Program-made: the position numbers and the translations under genes
Shown here: positions 1-9,459 of the stretch, in pieces
Position numbering within the stretch: the stretch's first letter is position 1
How the letters are laid out: each line of letters begins with the position of its first letter
From: a virus
Taxonomy: Duplodnaviria; Heunggongvirae; Uroviricota; Caudoviricetes
DNA: 36,416 nucleotides
Virus record (IMG/VR): IMGVR_UViG_2648501873_000005
Reading direction: 5' to 3' (one strand)
Notes under the pieces: generated by a model
Database searches by the model: none
The model's input: the letters and a program-made list of their open reading frames with translations, nothing else
What the model was told of the DNA's origin: nothing

Positions 1-822
1 ATGAAACTGGAAGATTTACCGAAATACTACTCCCCAAAATCCCCTGGCCTGACCGATGCATCGGCCTCAACGTCAAAAGATGCGCTGAGTATCACTGATG
101 TGATGGCCGCGCAGGGCATGACACAGAATCGGGCTGAGATGGGGTTTTCTGCGTTCCTGGGGAAAATGGGCATCAGTATGAATGACAGGGCGCGGGCAAC
201 AGAATTACTGGCAGATTATGCACTCAGTCGGTGCGATCGTGTGGCGGCGTTGAGAAAACTTCCGGCAGAAATAAAACCGGTAGTGATGCGCATTATGGCT
301 TCGTATGCGTTTGAAGATTATGCCCGTAGCGCGGCGAGCAAAAAACAGTGCCCCTGCTGTCACGGAAAAAAATTTATTGAAAGCGAGGTTTTTACAAACA
401 AGATCCAGTATCCGGATGGTAAGCCACCAGTGTGGGCAAAGTGCACAAAAGGCGTGTATCCGTCTTACTGGGAAGAATGGAAAAAAGTCAGGGAGGTGGT
501 AAAAGTTGCCTGTCCGGAGTGTGGCGGAAAGGGTGAGGTTTCCACCGCCTGTAAGGATTGCCGTGGGCGTGGTGTCGCCATTCATCGTGAAGAGTCGGTA
601 AAACGTGGTATGCCTGTTATCAGAGATTGCCAGCGTTGTGGTGGTCGTGGCTGTGAAAGGCTGCCATCAACGGAGGCATTTAATGCCATATGCAAAGTGA
701 CGAGTGCTATCACGCTTGATACGTGGAAAAAATCAGTGAAACGCTTTTACGATACGTTGGTGGTTCGGTTTGACATTGAAGAGGCATGGGCGGAGCGGCA
801 GTTAAAGAGGGTAACGCGATAG
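1..822 (+). CDS. Late-gene antitermination protein Q-like, with four DnaJ-type CxxCxGxG zinc-finger motifs; may be 5'-truncated by the window edge
   Basis: 273-aa ORF starting at base 1. Motifs CPCCHGKK, CPECGGKG, CKDCRGRG and CQRCGGRG are visible. A lambda-like pR' and terminator follow immediately. Family assignment is from memory of lambdoid Q proteins. Confidence 0.65.
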   Translation: MKLEDLPKYYSPKSPGLTDASASTSKDALSITDVMAAQGMTQNRAEMGFSAFLGKMGISMNDRARATELLADYALSRCDRVAALRKLPAEIKPVVMRIMASYAFEDYARSAASKKQCPCCHGKKFIESEVFTNKIQYPDGKPPVWAKCTKGVYPSYWEEWKKVREVVKVACPECGGKGEVSTACKDCRGRGVAIHREESVKRGMPVIRDCQRCGGRGCERLPSTEAFNAICKVTSAITLDTWKKSVKRFYDTLVVRFDIEEAWAERQLKRVTR

Positions 823-1396: not shown

Positions 1397-2446
1397 ATGC
1401 TTAATACTGTAAAAATATCCAGTTGTGAGTTAATCAACGCCGACTGCCTGGAATTTATCCGGTCGTTACCCGAAAATTCTGTTGACCTGATAGTCACGGA
1501 CCCGCCGTACTTTAAAGTGAAGCCTGAGGGCTGGGATAACCAGTGGAAGGGCGACGATGATTACCTGAAGTGGCTGGACCAGTGTCTGGCGCAGTTCTGG
1601 CGGGGGCTGAAACCTGCCGGAAGTCTTTACCTGTTCTGTGGTCATCGCCTGGCATCTGATATCGAAATCATGATGCGTGAACGCTTCAGTGTGCTGAACC
1701 ATATTATCTGGGCGAAGCCGTCCGGACGCTGGAACGGATGCAACAAGGAAAGCCTGCGGGCGTATTTCCCCGCCACAGAGCGCATTCTGTTCGCGGAACA
1801 TTATCAGGGGCCGTATCGTCCGAAAGATGCCGGGTATGCGGCGAAGGGCAGTGCACTGAAACAGCATGTGATGGCCCCGCTGATTTCTTACTTTCGTGAT
1901 GCGCGCGCGGCCCTGGGGATAACGGCAAAACAGATTGCAGATGCCACAGGAAAGAAAAACATGGTGTCGCACTGGTTCAGTGCCAGTCAGTGGCAGCTAC
2001 CGAACGAAAGCGATTATCTGAAATTACAGTCGCTGTTTGCCCGGGTGGCAGAAGAGAAACATCAGCGCGGTGAACTGGAAAAGCCCCACCACCAGCTGGT
2101 GGATACGTATACGTCACTGAACCGGCAGTATGTGGAGCTGCAGAGTGAATATAAGCATCTGCGGCGGTATTTTGGTGTGACGGCGCAGGTGCCGTACACG
2201 GATGTGTGGACACATAAACCGGTGCAGTTCTATCCCGGGAAACATCCGTGCGAAAAACCGGCAGAAATGCTGCAGCAGATAATCAGCGCAAGCAGTCGTC
2301 CGGGTGACCTGGTTGCAGATTTTTTTATGGGCTCAGGTTCAACGGTAAAAGCTGCACTGGCGCTCGGGCGTCGTGCGATTGGCGTTGAACTGGAGACCGG
2401 ACGTTTTGAGCAGACAGTCAGGGAAGTTCAGGATTTAATCGTTTGA
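1397..2446 (+). CDS. DNA N6-adenine (or N4-cytosine) methyltransferase, orphan phage type
   Basis: 349-aa ORF with the catalytic motif IVTDPPYF (DPPY) near the N-terminus. No adjacent restriction endonuclease gene. Confidence 0.8.
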   Translation: MLNTVKISSCELINADCLEFIRSLPENSVDLIVTDPPYFKVKPEGWDNQWKGDDDYLKWLDQCLAQFWRGLKPAGSLYLFCGHRLASDIEIMMRERFSVLNHIIWAKPSGRWNGCNKESLRAYFPATERILFAEHYQGPYRPKDAGYAAKGSALKQHVMAPLISYFRDARAALGITAKQIADATGKKNMVSHWFSASQWQLPNESDYLKLQSLFARVAEEKHQRGELEKPHHQLVDTYTSLNRQYVELQSEYKHLRRYFGVTAQVPYTDVWTHKPVQFYPGKHPCEKPAEMLQQIISASSRPGDLVADFFMGSGSTVKAALALGRRAIGVELETGRFEQTVREVQDLIV

Positions 2447-2904: not shown

Positions 2905-3108
2905 TTGATGATTGTCTGGCTGCCGGAGAATTTGTTAAAAATTACATCGCATGGTGAATCCCCCTCAGCGGCGGGGCATCTGGCAAAGTGTATGATCCAG
3001 AGAACATGCAAATTCAGTAGACAGGCTGAATTTACCGGGAGGCCCCTGGCACCATGCGACAGACAGAAATTAGGCTATACTTCAGCCCCTCTCCGGAGGG
3101 GCTTTTCT
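2905..3108 (+). repeat. Copy 1 of a diverged direct repeat of about 200 bp, ending in a terminator-like hairpin
   Basis: Blocks shared with copy 2: TTGTCTGGC..TTTGTTAAAAA..TCGCATGGTGAATCCCCCT, ACCGGGAGGC.C..GGCACCATGC, and the identical hairpin GCCCCTCTCCGGAGGGGC followed by a T-run. Confidence 0.6.
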
Positions 3109-3371
3109 GTGCAGGATGTGTCACAGTTTCCTGAATTCTGAGTACTGTCCTGTTACTCAGGGTGCTATATTTTCTGACGTGATGAAAGTCTGCCGGAAGG
3201 CGGAACGTATCGGAAATGACCCAGTAGAGAAAACGTTGACTCAGATACCGATGCTGAGTTACCGGGAAACCGGCATCACATGACCGCTATCCTTCCAGGC
3301 TCGCTCCGGCGGGCCTTTTTACTGCAGAAAACAGTTTTCCCGTAAAATGCCACGTTGCTCATAATTCAGGC

Positions 3372-3570
3372 TGGCGATTATTGTCTGGCCGGCGGGAAGT
3401 TTGTTAAAAAATTTCGCATGGTGAATCCCCCTGTGCGGAGGGGTAATCAGCGAGTAGGTATATGGGATAATCGCGGATTCAGGTGCTGGTACTGAATTCA
3501 CCGGGAGGCACCCGGCACCATGCAATGGCACATAGCGCCACTCTCCAGCCCCTCTCCGGAGGGGCTGTTT
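3372..3570 (+). repeat. Copy 2 of the same diverged direct repeat
   Basis: Same conserved blocks and the identical GCCCCTCTCCGGAGGGGC hairpin at 3548-3565. Confidence 0.6.
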
Positions 3571-3601
3571 ATATTGATTTTGTCAGATGTGAGTAAACTG
3601 C

Positions 3602-3937: not shown

Positions 3938-4197
3938 TTAGTTTCCTTGTTTATGCCTTGCTGGTGATGTTCTGAAAAGTATAAATGATATTTTTGATTG
4001 TAAACCATAGAGCAGAATTATTTTTCTGATGTTGTTTATTGTTTATTTAAATGCAGGGTGGTTTATATCTCGTCTTGTAGTTTATCCATGCATATCTGCT
4101 TGATGATGAGGTTTTTATTTAAGGTATGGTTTTGTGTTTTTTCTGTATTACATGTCAGGTATTTTAAAGAATCATTTTTCAGATGGTGGAAAGAACC

Positions 4198-6092
4198 ATG
4201 GCATTTAAACACTATGATGTTGTCAGGGCGGCGTCGCCGTCAGATCTTGCGGAAAAGCTGACACATAAACTGAAAGAGGGCTGGCAGCCGTTTGGTAGTC
4301 CGGTGGCCATAACCCCTTATACCCTGATGCAGGCGATTGCAGCAGAAGGTGATGTGGTCGTCAGTGGTGCAACTGAGCCGGAGTGGTACTACGTCATCGT
4401 ACTGGCCGGGCAATCCAATGCCATGGCTTACGGTGAAGGGCTTCCGCTTCCGGATTCTTACGATGCGCCCCACCCACGCATTAAGCAACTGGCCCGTCGC
4501 AACACAGTGACTCCCGGTGGTAAAGCATGCGCATTTAACGACATCATTCCGGCAGACCACTGCCTGCATGATGTTCAGGATATGAGCGCACTGAATCATC
4601 CGAAGGCAGACCTGAGCAAAGGGCAGTACGGCTGTGTCGGCCAGGGCTTACATATTGCCAAAAAACTGCTTCCGTATATCCCGAATAACGCGGGGATCCT
4701 GCTGGTACCATGCTGTCGTGGTGGTTCGGCATTCACCCAGGGCGCGGAGGGGACATTCAGTGCGGACACGGGGGCCAGCCAGGATTCGGCACGCTGGGGT
4801 GTGGGTAAACCGTTATATCAGGACCTGATCGCACGCACCAAAGCGGCATTACAGAAGAACCCGAAAAATGTGTTGCTGGCGGTGTGCTGGATGCAGGGCG
4901 AATTTGACATGAGCGCTGCCACCTACGCACAGCAACCGGACCTGTTCACGGCCATGCTGAAGCAGTTCCGTACTGACCTTTCCGGATTTAACGCGCAGTG
5001 CCATGGCGGCAGTGCTGCAGTTGTACCGTGGATTTGTGGCGACACGACGTATTACTGGAAAAACACATACGGCACACAGTATGACTCCGTCTACGGCGCG
5101 TACAAAAACAGGGAGAGCGACAACGTTTTCTTTGTGCCGTTCATGACCGACGGTAACGGCAACAACACGCCCACCAACTTACCGGCAGAAGACCCGGATA
5201 TTGCTGATGCAGGTTATTACGGCGCGCAATCCCGTAGTAATGGTAATTGGGTATCGTCAAATCGTCCGACACATTTCAGTTCATGGGCGCGCAGGGGCAT
5301 TATTTCGGATCGCCTGGCAACCGCTATTCTGAACGCAGTTGGTCGAACCAGCGCCTTCATCAGCGGTACCGCACCGGAGATTAAACCCTCGCCCGGCGGC
5401 GACACGCCATCGGGGCCGTCTGATGGTGACACATCCGTTCGTACAGTCTCCCTGCTGCCGACAGCCGGAGAGGCTGCTGCGCAGGGCTGGACCATCACCG
5501 GCGGCAGTGTTGCGCTGGAAGATGGTGTGTTTAAGGTTACCAAGCAGAGCAATAAAACCTGGTCCCTGATGCATCCGGTGGATGACGCAGTCTCCCTGCT
5601 GACACGGGGTGGCAGACTGAGCTGTAAGTTTCGACTGTCAGGCGCACTGACCAACAACCAGTTCGGTCTGGGAATTTATCTGTATACCGATGTAGCGTTA
5701 CCTGACGTCGTGGCGATGACCGGGACTGGTAACCCGTTCCTGATGTCGTGGCGATGACCGGGACTGGTAACCCGTTCCTGATGTCGTTCTTCACCCAGAC
5801 CACAGACGGCAAACTGAATCTGATGCATCACAAGAAAGCCGGAAACACAAAGTTGGGCGAGTTCGGGAATTACAGTAACGACTGGCAGACGCTGGAGCTG
5901 GTGTTCACCGCCGGCAGTGCCACGGTTACTCCGAAACTGAATGGAGTGGCTGGCCCGGCATTCCAGGTCATAAAAGACAGTCTGACACTGGGGCTGAATG
6001 CGCTGACGCTGACGGATATTACCAAAAATGCAGCGTATGGCGTTGAGATAGAAAGTCTGGTGCTGGAGATAAATGCACCGGCATCATCATAA
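4198..6092 (+). pseudogene. nanS-p: NanS-p-like esterase (DUF1737 N-domain plus SGNH/SASA sialate O-acetylesterase domain), frameshifted
   Basis: N-terminus MAFKHYDVVRAASPSDL and SASA-like block VIVLAGQSNAMAYGEG. The reading frame breaks at a 38-bp tandem duplication at 5707-5782, so the gene appears as two track ORFs (4183-5757 and 5748-6092). Family assignment from memory. Confidence 0.7.
5707..5782 (+). repeat. Perfect 38-bp tandem duplication (2 copies) inside the esterase gene
   Basis: GTCGTGGCGATGACCGGGACTGGTAACCCGTTCCTGAT occurs twice consecutively. 38 is not a multiple of 3, so it causes a frameshift. Confidence 0.9.
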
Positions 6093-6168
6093 AAAGTGAG
6101 CCAGTCAAATGGAAGGTATCGTTAAACTCACCGGTAGTGTCAGTGGGTCGTCTGAGATGCCTGCATGA

Positions 6169-6207
6169 GTTATCAGAGCCATCAGTACTTAACTGGTGGC
6201 TTTTTTT
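6169..6207 (+). terminator. Terminator-like hairpin upstream of the holin
   Basis: Imperfect stem GCCATCAG/CTGGTGGC followed by TTTTTTTATT. Confidence 0.35.
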
Positions 6208-6242
6208 ATTGTTGTCAGCTTCCGGATAACGGGAGACGGGGT

Positions 6243-6458
6243 ATGTACCAGATGGAAAAAATCACAACAGGTGTGTCATACACCACGTCAGCGGTGGGAA
6301 CGGGCTACTGGTTCCTGCAGTTGCTGGACAGGGTTTCCCCGTCTCAGTGGGCGGCAATAGGCGTGCTGGGGAGTCTGCTGTTTGGGCTGCTGACATATCT
6401 GACTAACCTGTATTTCAAAATCAGAGAGGACCGTCGTAAGGCTGCACGGGGAGAGTAA
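6243..6458 (+). CDS. S: Class II holin / pinholin, phage 21 S-like, with dual-start motif
   Basis: [71 protein letters not shown]. Two Met codons 3 codons apart (typical antiholin/holin dual start), two transmembrane segments, basic C-terminus. Resembles S21 as recalled. Confidence 0.85.
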
Positions 6459-6462
6459 TTCA

Positions 6463-6807
6463 ATGACTCAAAACTATGAACTGATTGTGAAAGGGATCCG
6501 CAATTTTGAGAATAAAGTTACGGTAACTTTAGCGTTACGGGACAAAAAACGCTTTGACGGTGAAATTTTTGACCTGGACATCTCGCTGGACCGTGTTGAA
6601 GGTGCCGCGCTGGAGTTTTATGAGGCAGCAGCCAGAAGGAGCATCAGACAGGTCTTCCTGGATGTTGCTGCCGGGTTATGTGAAGGGGATGAGCAGTCGC
6701 CGGAAAAGCGCCCCGTAATTTTAGAGGCGCAGGATGTGTTGATAACCTACAGAGGAAAACTACCGGGAATAATTACGGGTTCTCTGAAGAGTCCGCCGAA
6801 ATGGTAA
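6463..6807 (+). CDS. Hypothetical protein inserted between holin and endolysin, possibly YdfR/DUF1327-like
   Basis: 114-aa ORF with GGGGAGAG ribosome-binding site. Position matches ydfR in the K-12 Qin prophage; sequence identity to that family is unverified. Confidence 0.5.
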   Translation: MTQNYELIVKGIRNFENKVTVTLALRDKKRFDGEIFDLDISLDRVEGAALEFYEAAARRSIRQVFLDVAAGLCEGDEQSPEKRPVILEAQDVLITYRGKLPGIITGSLKSPPKW

Positions 6808-7045
6808 TTTTACCAGCATATTTTTCATCCAGTAATACAGCAAGCCGCCTGAAAGAGTCTTGTTGTTCCTGAGACCATTTGGGATTGCATGATTCAAACT
6901 GGATTGATGCCAGCGTTGATTGCATCTGTTCCCTTGGAATTGAGAATGCCAGATATGAGAAGGCGACGGTAAGGGTATTCACGTCTTCCCGAAGCCTGGA
7001 AATGCTGTCGAGCAACTCCTGTAGAGAAATGGTGTTATTGTCCAT
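6773..7045 (-). CDS. Hypothetical protein (90 aa), convergent with and overlapping the preceding ORF
   Basis: Minus-strand ORF with strong ribosome-binding site (GAGGATTATTT then ATG). Its 3' end overlaps the 3' end of 6463-6807 by 35 bp. A 7-bp palindrome CAGCCTG..CAGGCTG lies in its upstream region (7069-7091). Confidence 0.4.
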   Translation of the reverse strand: MDNNTISLQELLDSISRLREDVNTLTVAFSYLAFSIPREQMQSTLASIQFESCNPKWSQEQQDSFRRLAVLLDEKYAGKITISADSSENP

Positions 7046-7150
7046 AAATAATCCTCATGATTGTATTGACCTGTTAGCAGCCTGAGGCAACAGGCTGGAA
7101 CTGATAAACATATCCAGGGCTCAGAAACCGATAAATCCTGATAAATATCC

Positions 7151-7684
7151 ATGAACGCAAAAATCAGATACGGCCTGTCGGCTGCCGTTCTGGCGCTGAT
7201 TGCCGCTGGTGCGCCTGCGCCTGACATTCTCGACCAGTTTCTGGATGAAAAGGAAGGTAACCACACCACGGCATACCGTGATGGCGCGGGTATCTGGACC
7301 ATCTGCCGCGGTGCCATCCTGGTGGATGGCAAACCTGTCGTTCCGGGCATGAAGTTGTCGAAGGAAAAATGCGACCGGGTTAACGCCATTGAGCGTGATA
7401 AGGCGCTGGCATGGGTGGAGAAAAACATCAGAGTGCCATTGAGTGAACCCCAGAAAGCGGGGATCGCGTCATTCTGTCCGTACAACATTGGCCCCGGTAA
7501 GTGTTTTCCGTCGACGTTTTATAAACGAATTAATGCAGGTGATCGCAGGGGAGCGTGTGAGGCGATTCGCTGGTGGATTAAGGACGGTGGCAGGGACTGC
7601 CGTATTCGCTCAAATAACTGTTACGGTCAGGTATCCCGTCGTGACCAGGAGAGCGCGCTGGCGTGCTGGGGAATCGACAGATAA
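7151..7684 (+). CDS. R: SAR endolysin (lysozyme, R21-like)
   Basis: 177 aa. N-terminal hydrophobic Gly/Ala-rich signal-anchor-release segment LSAAVLALIAAGAPAP followed by a lysozyme-like domain. Resembles R21-type endolysins as recalled. Confidence 0.85.
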   Translation: MNAKIRYGLSAAVLALIAAGAPAPDILDQFLDEKEGNHTTAYRDGAGIWTICRGAILVDGKPVVPGMKLSKEKCDRVNAIERDKALAWVEKNIRVPLSEPQKAGIASFCPYNIGPGKCFPSTFYKRINAGDRRGACEAIRWWIKDGGRDCRIRSNNCYGQVSRRDQESALACWGIDR

Positions 7685-7774
7685 GCAGAATATTTTGCTA
7701 ATAAATGACGTTGGCCAAGGCGGACGGATAACACGAAATCCTGCGAACTGGCAAAATGTAAGTGAATAAAAGTA

Positions 7775-7812
7775 AAAACCCCGTTTGTTGGCAGCAAGCG
7801 GGGTTTTGTTTT
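7775..7812 (+). terminator. Bidirectional intrinsic terminator-like hairpin
   Basis: AAAACCCCGTTTG-loop-CAAGCGGGGTTTT, a 13-bp stem with one mismatch, flanked by an A-run upstream and a T-run downstream. Confidence 0.5.
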
Positions 7813-7976
7813 TATGGCAGTAAGCTATGGGAGGCTGCCTTGATTGATTTTAGCAAACTGATTAGGGAGTTGCGACTCATGATTAGTCAATTACCAAACT
7901 GGAAATTTTTGCTGGTCTGGAGCATCCCTTTTTTATGGGTAGTATCCCAGTTAATTGTGGCAATTAAGGGGTAGCT

Positions 7977-8108
7977 ATGTCAGACAAACTCATAACGCCG
8001 GCAAAGGTCCTGTGTGTGATTGTCGGTATTTCATTTTCACTAATGCTGGTTGCTCTTTTTCTGTCCCTCGCCTGGGTGATGTTGTCTTCGTCGGGGCTGC
8101 TGGGGTGA
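7977..8108 (+). CDS. Small hydrophobic membrane peptide (43 aa)
   Basis: ATG preceded by AAGGGG. Translation MSDKLITPAKVLCVIVGISFSLMLVALFLSLAWVMLSSSGLLG has one predicted transmembrane helix. Confidence 0.35.
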   Translation: MSDKLITPAKVLCVIVGISFSLMLVALFLSLAWVMLSSSGLLG

Positions 8109-8110
8109 CA

Positions 8111-8227
8111 GTGACTGATGACATCAGCAGAGCGCTGGCTTTTGCTATTAAGTGGGTGGCTGTTGGTATTGCTGTGTCTCCGATGCTGTATGGGCTGGCA
8201 AAACTGGTCATTGCGCTGAAATCGTGA
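8111..8227 (+). CDS. Small hydrophobic peptide (about 38 aa, GTG start), paralogous to the next ORF
   Basis: VTDDISRALAFAIKWVAVGIAVSPMLYGLAKLVIALKS. Shares the core RA[LM]AFAI[KR][WI]VA[VI] with the downstream peptide. Start codon uncertain. Confidence 0.3.
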   Translation: MTDDISRALAFAIKWVAVGIAVSPMLYGLAKLVIALKS

Positions 8228-8238
8228 ACTTTAAAAAG

Positions 8239-8325
8239 ATGAGTGCTGAACTTATTCGGGCAATGGCATTTGCCATTCGTATTGTGGCCATTGCTGTTCT
8301 GGTCTGGGCAATCCGTTGGTGGTGA
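8239..8325 (+). CDS. Small hydrophobic peptide (28 aa), paralogous to the previous ORF
   Basis: [28 protein letters not shown]. Its stop codon is 1 nt before the Rz ATG, suggesting translational coupling. Confidence 0.3.
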
Positions 8326-8326
8326 T

Positions 8327-8794
8327 ATGAACCGTGTTCTGTGTGTGGTGATTATTGTCCTGCTGGTAGCCTGTGGTGTGCTTAGTCTGGGGCTGAATCA
8401 TTACCGCGATAACGCCATCACCTACAAAGCGCAGCGCGATAAAAAAGTCAGTGAGCTGAAACTGGCGAACGCGACAATTACTGATATGCAGATACGCCAG
8501 CGTGATGTCGCTGAACTTGATGCCAGATACTCGAGGGAATTAGCCGATGCGAGAGCTGAAAATGAAACTCTGCGTGCTGATGTTGCCGCTGGTCGTAAGC
8601 GCCTGCGGATCAACGCCACCTGCTCCGGTACCGTGCGTGAAGCCACCGGCACCTCCGGCGTGGATAATGCAACCGGCCCCCGACTGGCAGACACCGCTGA
8701 ACGGGATTATTTCATCCTCAGAGAACGGTTGATGACAATGCAGAAGCAGCTGGAAGGGGCACAGGACTATATCCGCACTCAGTGCCTGAACTAA
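8327..8794 (+). CDS. Rz: i-spanin Rz
   Basis: N-terminal transmembrane segment followed by [16 protein letters not shown] and C-terminal [16 protein letters not shown], closely matching lambda Rz as recalled. Confidence 0.85.
8547..8732 (+). CDS. Rz1: o-spanin Rz1 (outer-membrane lipoprotein), embedded in the +1 frame of Rz
   Basis: [22 protein letters not shown].. with a lipobox and proline-rich body ending [23 protein letters not shown], matching lambda Rz1 as recalled. Confidence 0.8.
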
Positions 8795-9132
8795 GTTTTG
8801 CTGATGCGCCGTATCGTCGCTGTATTCCCTCATTAACAGAGACCGCAGCCCGACAGGGAGACTCCTCTGCGCGAGTGTGCGGGGATAATCAAAAACGATA
8901 CACACCGGGGTTTACCGCGTTAACGGAGCGCGGCGTTGTCCCCTCATAGTCGCCAGTCCGGTGCGATGGTGGAAGAAACAGGACGATGTGTTACCTCGCA
9001 AGCCCTGTTATGTCATGTGTCTGATTTGTGATTTAAGTCGGATAATTGTCGTTGCCATTAAGCAGAGGATTGATGACCGACAGGGCGGCATTGTTAGAAT
9101 AAGACTTATTCTTATCTGTGCGGGGAATGAAA

Positions 9133-9459
9133 ATGAAAAGAAATCTTCCGTTAATTATTTTGTTGTCTTCTCTGGTTATGGGCTGTACGCAACATAAAAC
9201 AGATATGCCCCGACAGTTGGTTAAGGCATTACCACAATATCCGGCCTATGCAGCGGCAAATTATATAAAGGGACGGGTTGATGTGAGGTTTGATATTGGT
9301 GCTGATGGTACTGTCACCCGAATTGAGTTTATTCGTTCAGAGCCGCACCATCTGTTTGATGAGCAGGTTGTAAAGGCGATGGCAAAATGGCGATTTGAGA
9401 AGGACAGGCCGTGTAAAGGCGTGAAGAAAACGTTTATCTTTAGTCCTTCTGCACACTGA
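9133..9459 (+). CDS. Lipoprotein with a TonB C-terminal-like domain (moron)
   Basis: Signal peptide and lipobox (LVMGC). Body YPAYAAANYIKGRVDVRFDIGADGTVTRIEFIRSEPHHLFDEQVVKAMAKWRFE fits the TonB_C pattern (YP..A...G.V.V.F.I..G.V...I..S......A.....W.F). SD GGGGA 6 nt upstream. Start could be 9127. Confidence 0.55.
   Translation: MKRNLPLIILLSSLVMGCTQHKTDMPRQLVKALPQYPAYAAANYIKGRVDVRFDIGADGTVTRIEFIRSEPHHLFDEQVVKAMAKWRFEKDRPCKGVKKTFIFSPSAH

Follow-up and report, generated by a model that had tools for sequence, protein, structure and literature searches.

What occupies the DNA between the endolysin gene R and the i-spanin gene Rz in a lambdoid prophage that keeps these two genes apart, and what could it do for the phage? 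We addressed this question for the IMG/VR virus record IMGVR_UViG_2648501873_000005 (Caudoviricetes); the window, i.e. the whole stretch of 36,416 nucleotides that was analysed, represents the late, Q-dependent part of a lambdoid Escherichia coli prophage. In this window, R and Rz are separated by 642 bp (positions 7685 to 8326). An earlier note on this DNA had started from the view that endolysin and Rz genes are usually contiguous, which holds in the Qin prophage of strain K-12, where the lysozyme gene rrrQ and the spanin gene rzpQ overlap by 4 nt. Since the Qin genes overlap, we regard the 642 bp as an accessory insert. It contains, in order, a terminator hairpin, a leader with a strong Shine–Dalgarno (SD) site and four mini-genes, which we call a44, b43, c38 and d28. 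The earlier note had listed three hydrophobic open reading frames (ORFs) of 43, about 38 and 28 amino acids; all three are present, but the fourth ORF, a44 (7840–7974), had been missed. Based on the comparison of homologous loci, the four ORFs are very probably real, translated genes for membrane mini-proteins of the late operon.

The four mini-genes and their annotation

The coordinates of the mini-genes and of all other features are collected in Table 1. The encoded peptides are hydrophobic single-helix proteins of 28–44 residues, with hydropathy maxima of 1.9–2.9 over 19 residues, and the positive-inside rule supports a cytoplasmic location of the N-termini of the a and b peptides. Strong SD sites are found in front of a44 and b43; the anti-SD duplex of the a44 site (GGGAGG) has an energy of −10.2 kcal/mol, which places it in the top 1% of the window. 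The genes are tightly spaced: the gap between a44 and b43 is 2 nt, c38 either overlaps b43 by 4 nt (start GTG 8105) or follows it after 2 nt (start GTG 8111), c38 and d28 are 11 nt apart, and 1 nt lies between d28 and Rz. The alternative c38 start at GTG 8105, which overlaps the b43 stop, gives a protein of 40 amino acids.

Concerning the known families, a44 matches PHROG 6632 from its first residue (E=1.3e-12); its first 26 codons are homologous to those of the a45 family, while its C-terminal half is different. The d28 peptide matches the c-family profiles (PHROG 3246/1115/4493) with E=3.8e-6, and full-length relatives of it, with 35–42 amino acids, exist. Existing annotation treats the ORFs as hypothetical proteins, and PGAP places four coding sequences in the interval. 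Two of the mini-genes are mis-annotated at their starts: GTG 7762 (70 amino acids, through the hairpin) and CTG 8072 (51 amino acids), as given by PGAP/RefSeq, have no SD, conflict with the family profiles and are poorly supported. The database entries of 58–90 amino acids for the c38 locus are explained by the c38 frame, which is open back to 7955. All of the PHROGs concerned are labelled 'unknown function', and membership in them therefore conveys no mechanism.

Coding evidence

A scan of viral contigs gave 316 relatives, of which the 80 kept were all identical; divergence was drawn instead from contigs encoding proteins of the families. Compared with its Salmonella copy, c38 has 27 nucleotide differences, 21 of them at third codon positions, and a ratio of nonsynonymous to synonymous divergence (dN/dS) of 0.06. 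Other c38 pairs have dN/dS values of 0.04–0.46, and the segregating sites of c38 are distributed over the three codon positions as 15/6/27 (p=0.0009). The values are 0.17–0.28 for d28 and, at dS above 1, 0.12–0.29 for the full-length members of the a45 family; the latter comparison comprised the 45-residue proteins from H-19B, CP-1639, SPN3UB, SEN34, Escherichia fergusonii and Salmonella. The codon-position pattern of b43 (21/14/27) agrees with its own frame but not with the alternative frame that is also open, and the core of its transmembrane domain (TMD), CVIVGISFSLMLV, is nearly invariant. The b43 family comprises 103 database clusters at 90% identity, whose full-length entries are mostly exactly 43 amino acids long; the c38 family comprises 93. 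Intact ORFs are present in 75–92 loci per gene, and a44 is intact in 75 of 75. Taken over these comparisons, the substitution patterns show purifying selection on the peptides.

The earlier note had named frameshifts or stops in homologous loci, with conservation at the nucleotide level only, as the sign of a non-coding spacer, and had proposed a codon-level comparison. The homologous loci keep the frames open and the lengths constant and have an excess of third-position and synonymous changes; frameshifted alleles are rare. A non-coding spacer with chance ORFs would agree with these rare alleles, with the very short ORFs, with the lack of an SD in front of d28 and with the alternative frame across b43. 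It is contradicted by the codon-level data, the conserved lengths, the SD sites and the recurrence of the genes, and we find it scarcely credible.

Junction with Rz and expression

The last ORF was said to stop 1 nt before Rz, and this is the case: the TGA of d28 (8323–8325) is followed by one base and the Rz ATG at 8327, the junction being GGTGGTGAnATG. A junction of the type TGGTGGTGAnATG is found upstream of both PF03245 and DUF2514 spanins. One explanation of such junctions is that the ORFs are translational-coupling leaders, whose translation delivers initiation at Rz after the insert has broken the coupling to R, with the peptides being incidental. The stop-1nt-ATG arrangement before two unrelated i-spanin families, the SD-like nature of the codons for RWW and the stop (GGTGGTGA) and the tight spacing along the whole chain agree with this explanation. 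Against it, purifying selection acts on the peptides over their whole length, the TMD core of b43 is conserved, and members without a coupled spanin exist (SEN34, the L084 type of cassette described below, and b43 before a methylase gene). Because selection acts on the peptide sequences, a pure role as coupling leaders is quite improbable.

The consensus scan found no promoter-like site on the plus strand between 6000 and 9073, and the only strong terminator (7775–7807) is upstream of the array. Because no promoter was seen for the array and a terminator precedes it, production of the peptides is probably confined to the late phase, when the lysis proteins are made as well.

Families, relatives and arrangements

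On sequence similarity, the peptides fall into three unrelated families, and c38 and d28 are paralogous. In a pairwise BLASTP comparison, 10 of 27 residues of c38 and d28 are identical and 19 of 27 positive (E=3e-5). The motif that the earlier note saw in both is thus real, as RALAFAIKWVAV in one and a diverged counterpart of 12 residues in the other, and its conserved residues often use different codons (e.g. AGA/CGG, GCG/GCA). The c and d proteins are modular variants of one family, in which long or short N-termini are combined with ...LKS or ...IRWW ends. The a45 protein of H-19B matches PHROG 6632 with E=1.2e-29. A kinship of the a-family with the c-family was rejected (hhalign probability 0.15%), as was the idea that b43 is a decoy of the Rz TMD, since b43 does not align with Rz and has no similarity to it.

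A profile search against 1.84 billion representative proteins found no more than 21 proteins akin to the c/d family, with lengths of 20–87 amino acids, and this exhaustive search gave no link of the family to a larger known one. Because all 21 relatives are so short, we regard c and d as narrow families of true mini-proteins and not as fragments of larger proteins. A scan of bacterial genome contigs with the c-family alignment gave 53 pattern matches, none of which was confirmed. In the searches run, the families are restricted to temperate phages of Escherichia and Salmonella.

The mini-genes recur in different ARRANGEMENTS, and their number and order vary among related loci. The order R-a-b-c-d-Rz is found in the window and in about 75 IMG/VR contigs, R-c-b-Rz in PhiR12_1, R-ant-b-Rz in the Shiga toxin (Stx) phage P13374 and many Stx-converting phages, R-d-Rz in GER2 and R-c-Rz in Salmonella. 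Related loci have R-D-c-C-d-Rz or R-c-b-DNA methylase-Rz, and a further arrangement, GH108 endolysin-C-c-b-lipoprotein, has no recognisable Rz. Across loci, the mini-genes are preceded by four types of endolysin gene and followed by i-spanin genes of two unrelated families. The structural reading of the earlier note, small genes for hydrophobic peptides, two of them paralogous, in a lysis cassette, stands; what it had missed are the varying gene combinations.

The position of the genes is partly constant. A c/d-family gene, where found, is always 3' of the endolysin gene in the lysis-cassette loci inspected. In all six lysis-cassette loci inspected and in SEN34, a terminator hairpin and a conserved leader, whose SD is AAGGGAGAA, are found upstream of the a45 gene; in the same six loci, a45 ends with ...IRWW, the stop, 1 base and the i-spanin ATG. 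This junction persists with PF03245 Rz or the unrelated DUF2514, and the endolysin may be a signal-anchor-release (SAR) lysozyme, a GH19 enzyme or another lysozyme.

Concerning the R–Rz gap in other relatives, it contains, beside mini-genes, N6/N4 DNA methylase genes coupled to Rz, antirepressor (ant) genes or a gene for a 231-residue protein (L111/L112, 2138–3073; L093, 1859–2428; L108, 1211–1906; L002, 2359–3054). The gap is a general hot spot for cargo. The loci L084–L086 (2616–3461) contain cassettes of holin_8, holin_3_7 and a GH108 endolysin without recognisable Rz/Rz1; in the place of the spanin are three mini-peptide genes and a gene for a 51-residue lipoprotein (PHROG 7528, unknown function). 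In such cassettes, the peptide array and the lipoprotein might substitute for the spanin. The E. fergusonii prophage locus L100 (2186–2640) contains two tandem hairpin-leader-peptide modules, each ending in ...WW-stop-n-ATG. Between them is ATG TCC CGG GTA (MSRV), which looks like the scar of an older peptide–Rz junction and resembles the N-terminus of lambda Rz; TGGTGGTGATATG forms a direct repeat flanking the second module.

The hairpin, the leader and a candidate antisense RNA

The terminator-like hairpin of the earlier note is present and structurally conserved. Its stem of 15 bp (7775–7807) is followed by a T-rich tail, GTTTTTATGG, as in intrinsic (Rho-independent) terminators, and termination is predicted; because of an A-tract upstream, the hairpin is potentially bidirectional. 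Among nine diverged homologues, 93% of the alignment cells in the stem are paired, with compensatory changes in 5 of 13 pairs, and the conservation score is above those of all 500 shuffles and all slid controls. The leader that follows can form a small plus-strand hairpin at 7815–7838 (GGCAGU...GCUGCC), with the a44 SD in the loop and 3' arm; in homologous leaders, this place is taken by another small stem, CCTTG...CAAGG. In other phages, a45 or c60 follows a homologous leader that contains AAGGGAGAA. No Rfam family matches within the interval at gathering thresholds, and at E≤5 the matches, including ohsC (E=1.3), are at chance level.

The hairpin could also serve the minus strand. In that case it would terminate an RNA of about 70 nt whose 5' end is located in the initial codons of the leading mini-gene and which overlaps the SD of that gene. 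Such an antisense RNA would repress a membrane-toxic peptide, together with Rz and the other genes coupled to the peptide gene, until it is titrated by late transcription. A promoter-like element with a 17-nt spacer (−10 TAAAAT/TAATAT, −35 TCGCAA/TCGAAT) is present on the minus strand at the equivalent position in all six diverged a-family loci, and c/d-led modules that share the hairpin and leader have another element in equivalent geometry (TATACT, 18-nt spacer, TAGTCA/TGGACA). Synonymous divergence in a45 is 0.27 in codons 2–13 versus 0.70 in codons 14–45, while nonsynonymous divergence is similar (0.15 versus 0.20), and a rare CGA codon is invariant. A transcript from the element would begin at the start codon and run over the SD to the hairpin. 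The hairpin, the leader and the ORF start also occur together, SEN34 included, and the predicted antisense RNA presents CCUCCC in a loop, followed by the terminator. Precedents are hokW–sokW (PMC8621323) and P22 sar and lambda OOP (PMC12197685).

Other observations speak against the antisense RNA. The −35 elements match the consensus at only 3 of 6 positions; the sites were not called by the promoter scan, and their position weight matrix scores, in the top 2–23% of background windows, are individually non-significant. Conservation of the hexamers might follow from that of the peptide N-terminus or from recent recombination, and the minus-strand U-tract is weak in some homologues. The toxin promoter is lacking, the best Rfam matches are those at chance level, and the peptides match no Pfam family at all, including families of type I toxins (e.g. 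Hok_Gef). In enterohaemorrhagic E. coli Sakai, the two Hfq-bound small RNAs that we mapped from Table S2 of Tree et al. 2014, EcOnc33 and EcOnc52, map to the 3' ends of cargo genes situated upstream and not to an R–Rz gap. Neither Rfam and the literature nor the EcOnc33/EcOnc52 mapping gave transcript evidence for an antisense RNA. A different antisense promoter, called by the scan at 7983→7954, was rejected since it is not conserved in relatives and such calls occur at chance density. As judged from sequence, it is rather unlikely that an antisense RNA is what the hairpin is for, and equally so that hairpin, leader and first codons form a unit which recurs across phage contexts and encodes a ~70-nt antisense RNA gating a membrane-active peptide and, via translational coupling, the spanin.

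Possible function of the peptides

We tentatively lean towards a reading of the peptides as accessory inner-membrane modulators of lysis. Only Q-modified RNA polymerase, starting from pR', would read through the terminator into the mini-genes, and the peptides would be made at the same time as holin, endolysin and spanin. The mini-genes would be translated as a coupled chain ending in Rz, and the peptides would insert into the inner membrane, which is supported by their hydropathy. There they may act as dispensable modulators, shifting holin or pinholin triggering by helix–helix contacts or mild depolarisation; alternatively, spanin expression may be tuned through the translational coupling. 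The array is absent in Qin, and at least 80% of the stretch 7600–8400 is found in only 587 of the 2080 E. coli genomes that match it; because the array is thus dispensable for lysis as such, an accessory, tuning role is favoured. Small proteins with comparable roles are HokW of the Stx2 prophage Sp5, a hydrophobic prophage peptide that aids lysis (PMC8621323), and gp25 of phage Mu, a TMD protein encoded 3' of a SAR endolysin gene that controls endolysin release (PMC9239132).

Several points weigh against this reading. The constraint on b43 is only moderate (dN/dS 0.2–1.05, mostly 0.3–0.7), d28 is without an SD of its own, and we infer both the timing of expression and the membrane insertion from sequence features. 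Pfam, NCBIfam, PADLOC and the literature gave no experimental or homology link of the peptides to a lysis function, and a literature search that included the PGAP protein accessions found no published study of these ORFs. The position between R and Rz is weak evidence for a role in lysis, because the gap also hosts non-lysis genes (ant, N6/N4 DNA methylase and the 231-residue ORF). The holins, endolysins and spanins found alongside the peptides are unrelated, which argues against a specific phage partner. Finally, the mini-genes are not confined to lysis cassettes: in Salmonella phage SEN34 the hairpin-leader-a45 unit is located among baseplate genes, and in L110 b43 is found in a different late-gene context.

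These last observations are also what would be expected if the peptides were late-operon cargo unrelated to lysis, acting on host membrane proteins or on competing phages (e.g. by blocking superinfection of an already infected cell or by modulating a transporter or sensor), with the gap being merely tolerant of insertions. The presence of ant, methylase and 231-residue genes in the gap, the inserts at the S–R junction (DUF1327 and the antisense 90-residue ORF) and the independence of the peptides from the type of holin, endolysin and spanin fit such a role as well. The lack of a promoter and the upstream terminator oppose it, since the lysogen then probably does not express the peptides, and it is in the lysogen that classical exclusion and defence morons act. 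There is also no PADLOC match, and c/d-family genes are 3' of the endolysin gene in every inspected lysis-cassette locus that has one. The cargo role is the main competitor of the lysis reading, and we regard it as somewhat doubtful. Of the functions that the earlier note had offered (lysis inhibitor, accessory holin-like factor, membrane-depolarising toxin or exclusion factor), the exclusion factor is disfavoured in its classical, lysogen-expressed form by the same lack of a promoter and upstream terminator, by the tight ORF spacing and by the lack of a PADLOC match.

Comparison with known systems

The four peptides have no match in Pfam or NCBIfam (E≤1), holin families included, and PADLOC gave no match for the six peptide families or the neighbouring ORFs. 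Holin-type traits that can be read from the sequence are present, i.e. at least one predicted TMD, small size and a gene adjoining the endolysin gene; a P21-type holin is already encoded in the window. The lambda S105/S107 and phage 21 S68/S71 proteins are small, late inner-membrane proteins of lysis cassettes, whose TMD interactions set the timing of lysis. The peptides would be like such holin/antiholin pairs in being small, late inner-membrane proteins of the lysis cassette, traits which are predicted for them. They differ in having one helix and separate genes 3' of R, whereas the holin/antiholin pairs have two to three TMDs and dual starts within S.

The Mu releasin gp25 (DUF2730) has 99 amino acids, an N-out/C-in topology and a cytoplasmic domain of 73 residues (PMC9239132). 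The likeness to the peptides lies in a single-TMD late protein encoded a few genes 3' of a SAR endolysin, gp25 being a regulator of a lysis step. The peptides, however, have 28–44 residues and no DUF2730 match in Pfam, and their families also accompany GH108 and GH19 endolysins. They also differ from spanins, as they consist almost entirely of a hydrophobic helix, with no room for a periplasmic domain like that of i-spanins, and have no lipobox as in o- and u-spanins.

In hokW–sokW of the Stx2 prophage Sp5, a hydrophobic inner-membrane peptide under the control of an antisense RNA assists lysis and phage release (PMC8621323). The peptides share with it the small size, the hydrophobicity and the occurrence in Shiga-toxin prophages; the antisense RNA is here only predicted. 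No Pfam or NCBIfam match assigns the peptides to a type I toxin family, and the independent toxin promoter of type I toxin–antitoxin systems is lacking on the plus strand (6000–9073). As for an antisense RNA over the translation-initiation region, promoter-like elements and a terminator are in the right geometry, with weak matches to the consensus. The loci for toxins of the Hok family have their own transcription and are situated in other parts of the prophage.

Phage antisense RNAs of about 68–77 nt are represented by P22 sar, which pairs with ant mRNA, and lambda OOP, which controls cII (PMC12197685). Their geometry matches that predicted for the minus strand at 7766–7840. Both sar and OOP were established by experiment and serve in the control of immunity or lysogeny, whereas the candidate here derives from promoter-like hexamers and suppressed synonymous divergence. 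Morons of lambdoid phages are DNA insertions tolerated 3' of PR' (PMC4104026). The array is similar to them in being composed of accessory genes between conserved late genes that are present or absent among relatives. The classical moron, as Juhala and colleagues are said to have described it in 2000, combines a promoter of its own with a terminator downstream, and the lysogen expresses it; for the array, the scan gave no promoter, and its one strong terminator precedes the genes. By analogy, the peptides at most resemble accessory membrane proteins of lysis cassettes.

Genomic setting

The features of the window are listed in Table 1. R is a SAR-like (phage-21-like) lysozyme, as read from its N-terminal stretch, MNAKIRYGLSAAVLALIAAGA. 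The spacer directly after R is shared, with changes, by H-19B and L088 in sequence comparison, and it contains no credible ORF. The stretch 7600–8400 has some match in 2080 of 5426 complete E. coli genomes, and at least 80% of it is present in 587; identical or near-identical copies are found in many of the genomes.

Table 1. Features of the late region around the R–Rz interval (positions in the window)
Feature	Position	Strand	Remarks
Q antiterminator	1–822		
DNA methylase	1397–2446		
Two tRNA genes and two tandem copies of the STnc100 small RNA family	2496–2652, 2919–3112, 3388–3576		STnc100 copies: 138 and 132 bits
SASA esterase	4183–5757		
P21-type holin	6243–6458		
DUF1327/YdfR	6463–6807	+	Cargo of the holin–endolysin junction
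90-residue ORF	6773–7045	opposite	PHROG 2411; cargo of the holin–endolysin junction
Lysozyme R	7151–7684	+	Left border of the insert; Pfam Phage_lysozyme, PHROG endolysin
Spacer after R	7685–7774	+	About 90 nt
Hypothetical antisense RNA	7766–7840	−	About 70–75 nt; over the a44 start and SD, ending at the hairpin; predicted fold
G+C-rich terminator hairpin with T-rich tail	7775–7817 (stem 7775–7807)	unspecified	15 pairs
Leader	7808–7839	+	Small hairpin (~7815–7838) and a44 SD GGGAGG
a44	7840–7974	+	44 amino acids, TTG start; amphipathic N-terminus and one TMD
Hypothetical antisense promoter	7847–7875	−	In a44 codons 3–12; −35 TCGCAA, 17-nt spacer, −10 TAAAAT
b43	7977–8108	+	43 amino acids, single TMD; PHROG 4906, E=4.5e-21
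c38	8111–8227	+	38 amino acids, GTG start, weakly hydrophobic; PHROG 3246/1115/4493, E=1.9e-27
d28	8239–8325	+	28 amino acids, c38 paralogue; short N-terminus, ...IRWW C-terminus
SD-like site for Rz, GGTGGTGA	8318–8325	+	Last d28 codons and stop (TGG TGG TGA); anti-SD duplex −6.2 kcal/mol
Rz i-spanin	8327–8794	+	Right border of the insert; Pfam Phage_lysis, PHROG 13
Rz1 ORF	8547–8732		Embedded in Rz

The tRNA genes and the STnc100 copies are located 3' of Q and the methylase gene and 5' of the esterase and lysis genes. The 3' ends of DUF1327/YdfR and the 90-residue ORF overlap by 35 nt. Rz/Rz1 are followed by genes for a lipoprotein with a TonB_C domain, an HNH protein and terminase. The first of these is an ORF of 113 residues with a GTG start (9118–9459), directly 3' of Rz/Rz1, with a lipobox-like LVMGC and a TonB_C match (Pfam, 9.7e-15); its PHROG 1267 label, 'Rz-like spanin', looks like a positional and not a functional annotation.

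Significance

Lambdoid lysis cassettes are treated as a solved paradigm of holin, endolysin and spanin, to which the array adds conserved genes for membrane mini-proteins. It also offers a tractable case, in which families of small membrane proteins can be defined by comparative genomics. About one in ten complete E. coli genomes (587 of 5426) carries the array, and many Stx-converting phages have at least b43. If the hairpin and leader did encode an antisense RNA that gates the peptides, an RNA layer would be added to lysis control. For lambdoid phages, among them Stx1 phages such as H-19B, this would be a safety or timing device of a kind not yet described, based on RNA and acting on the final step of lysis. 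If the peptides tune the timing of lysis or the release of phage, burst size would change, and so would the release of toxin in Stx phages.

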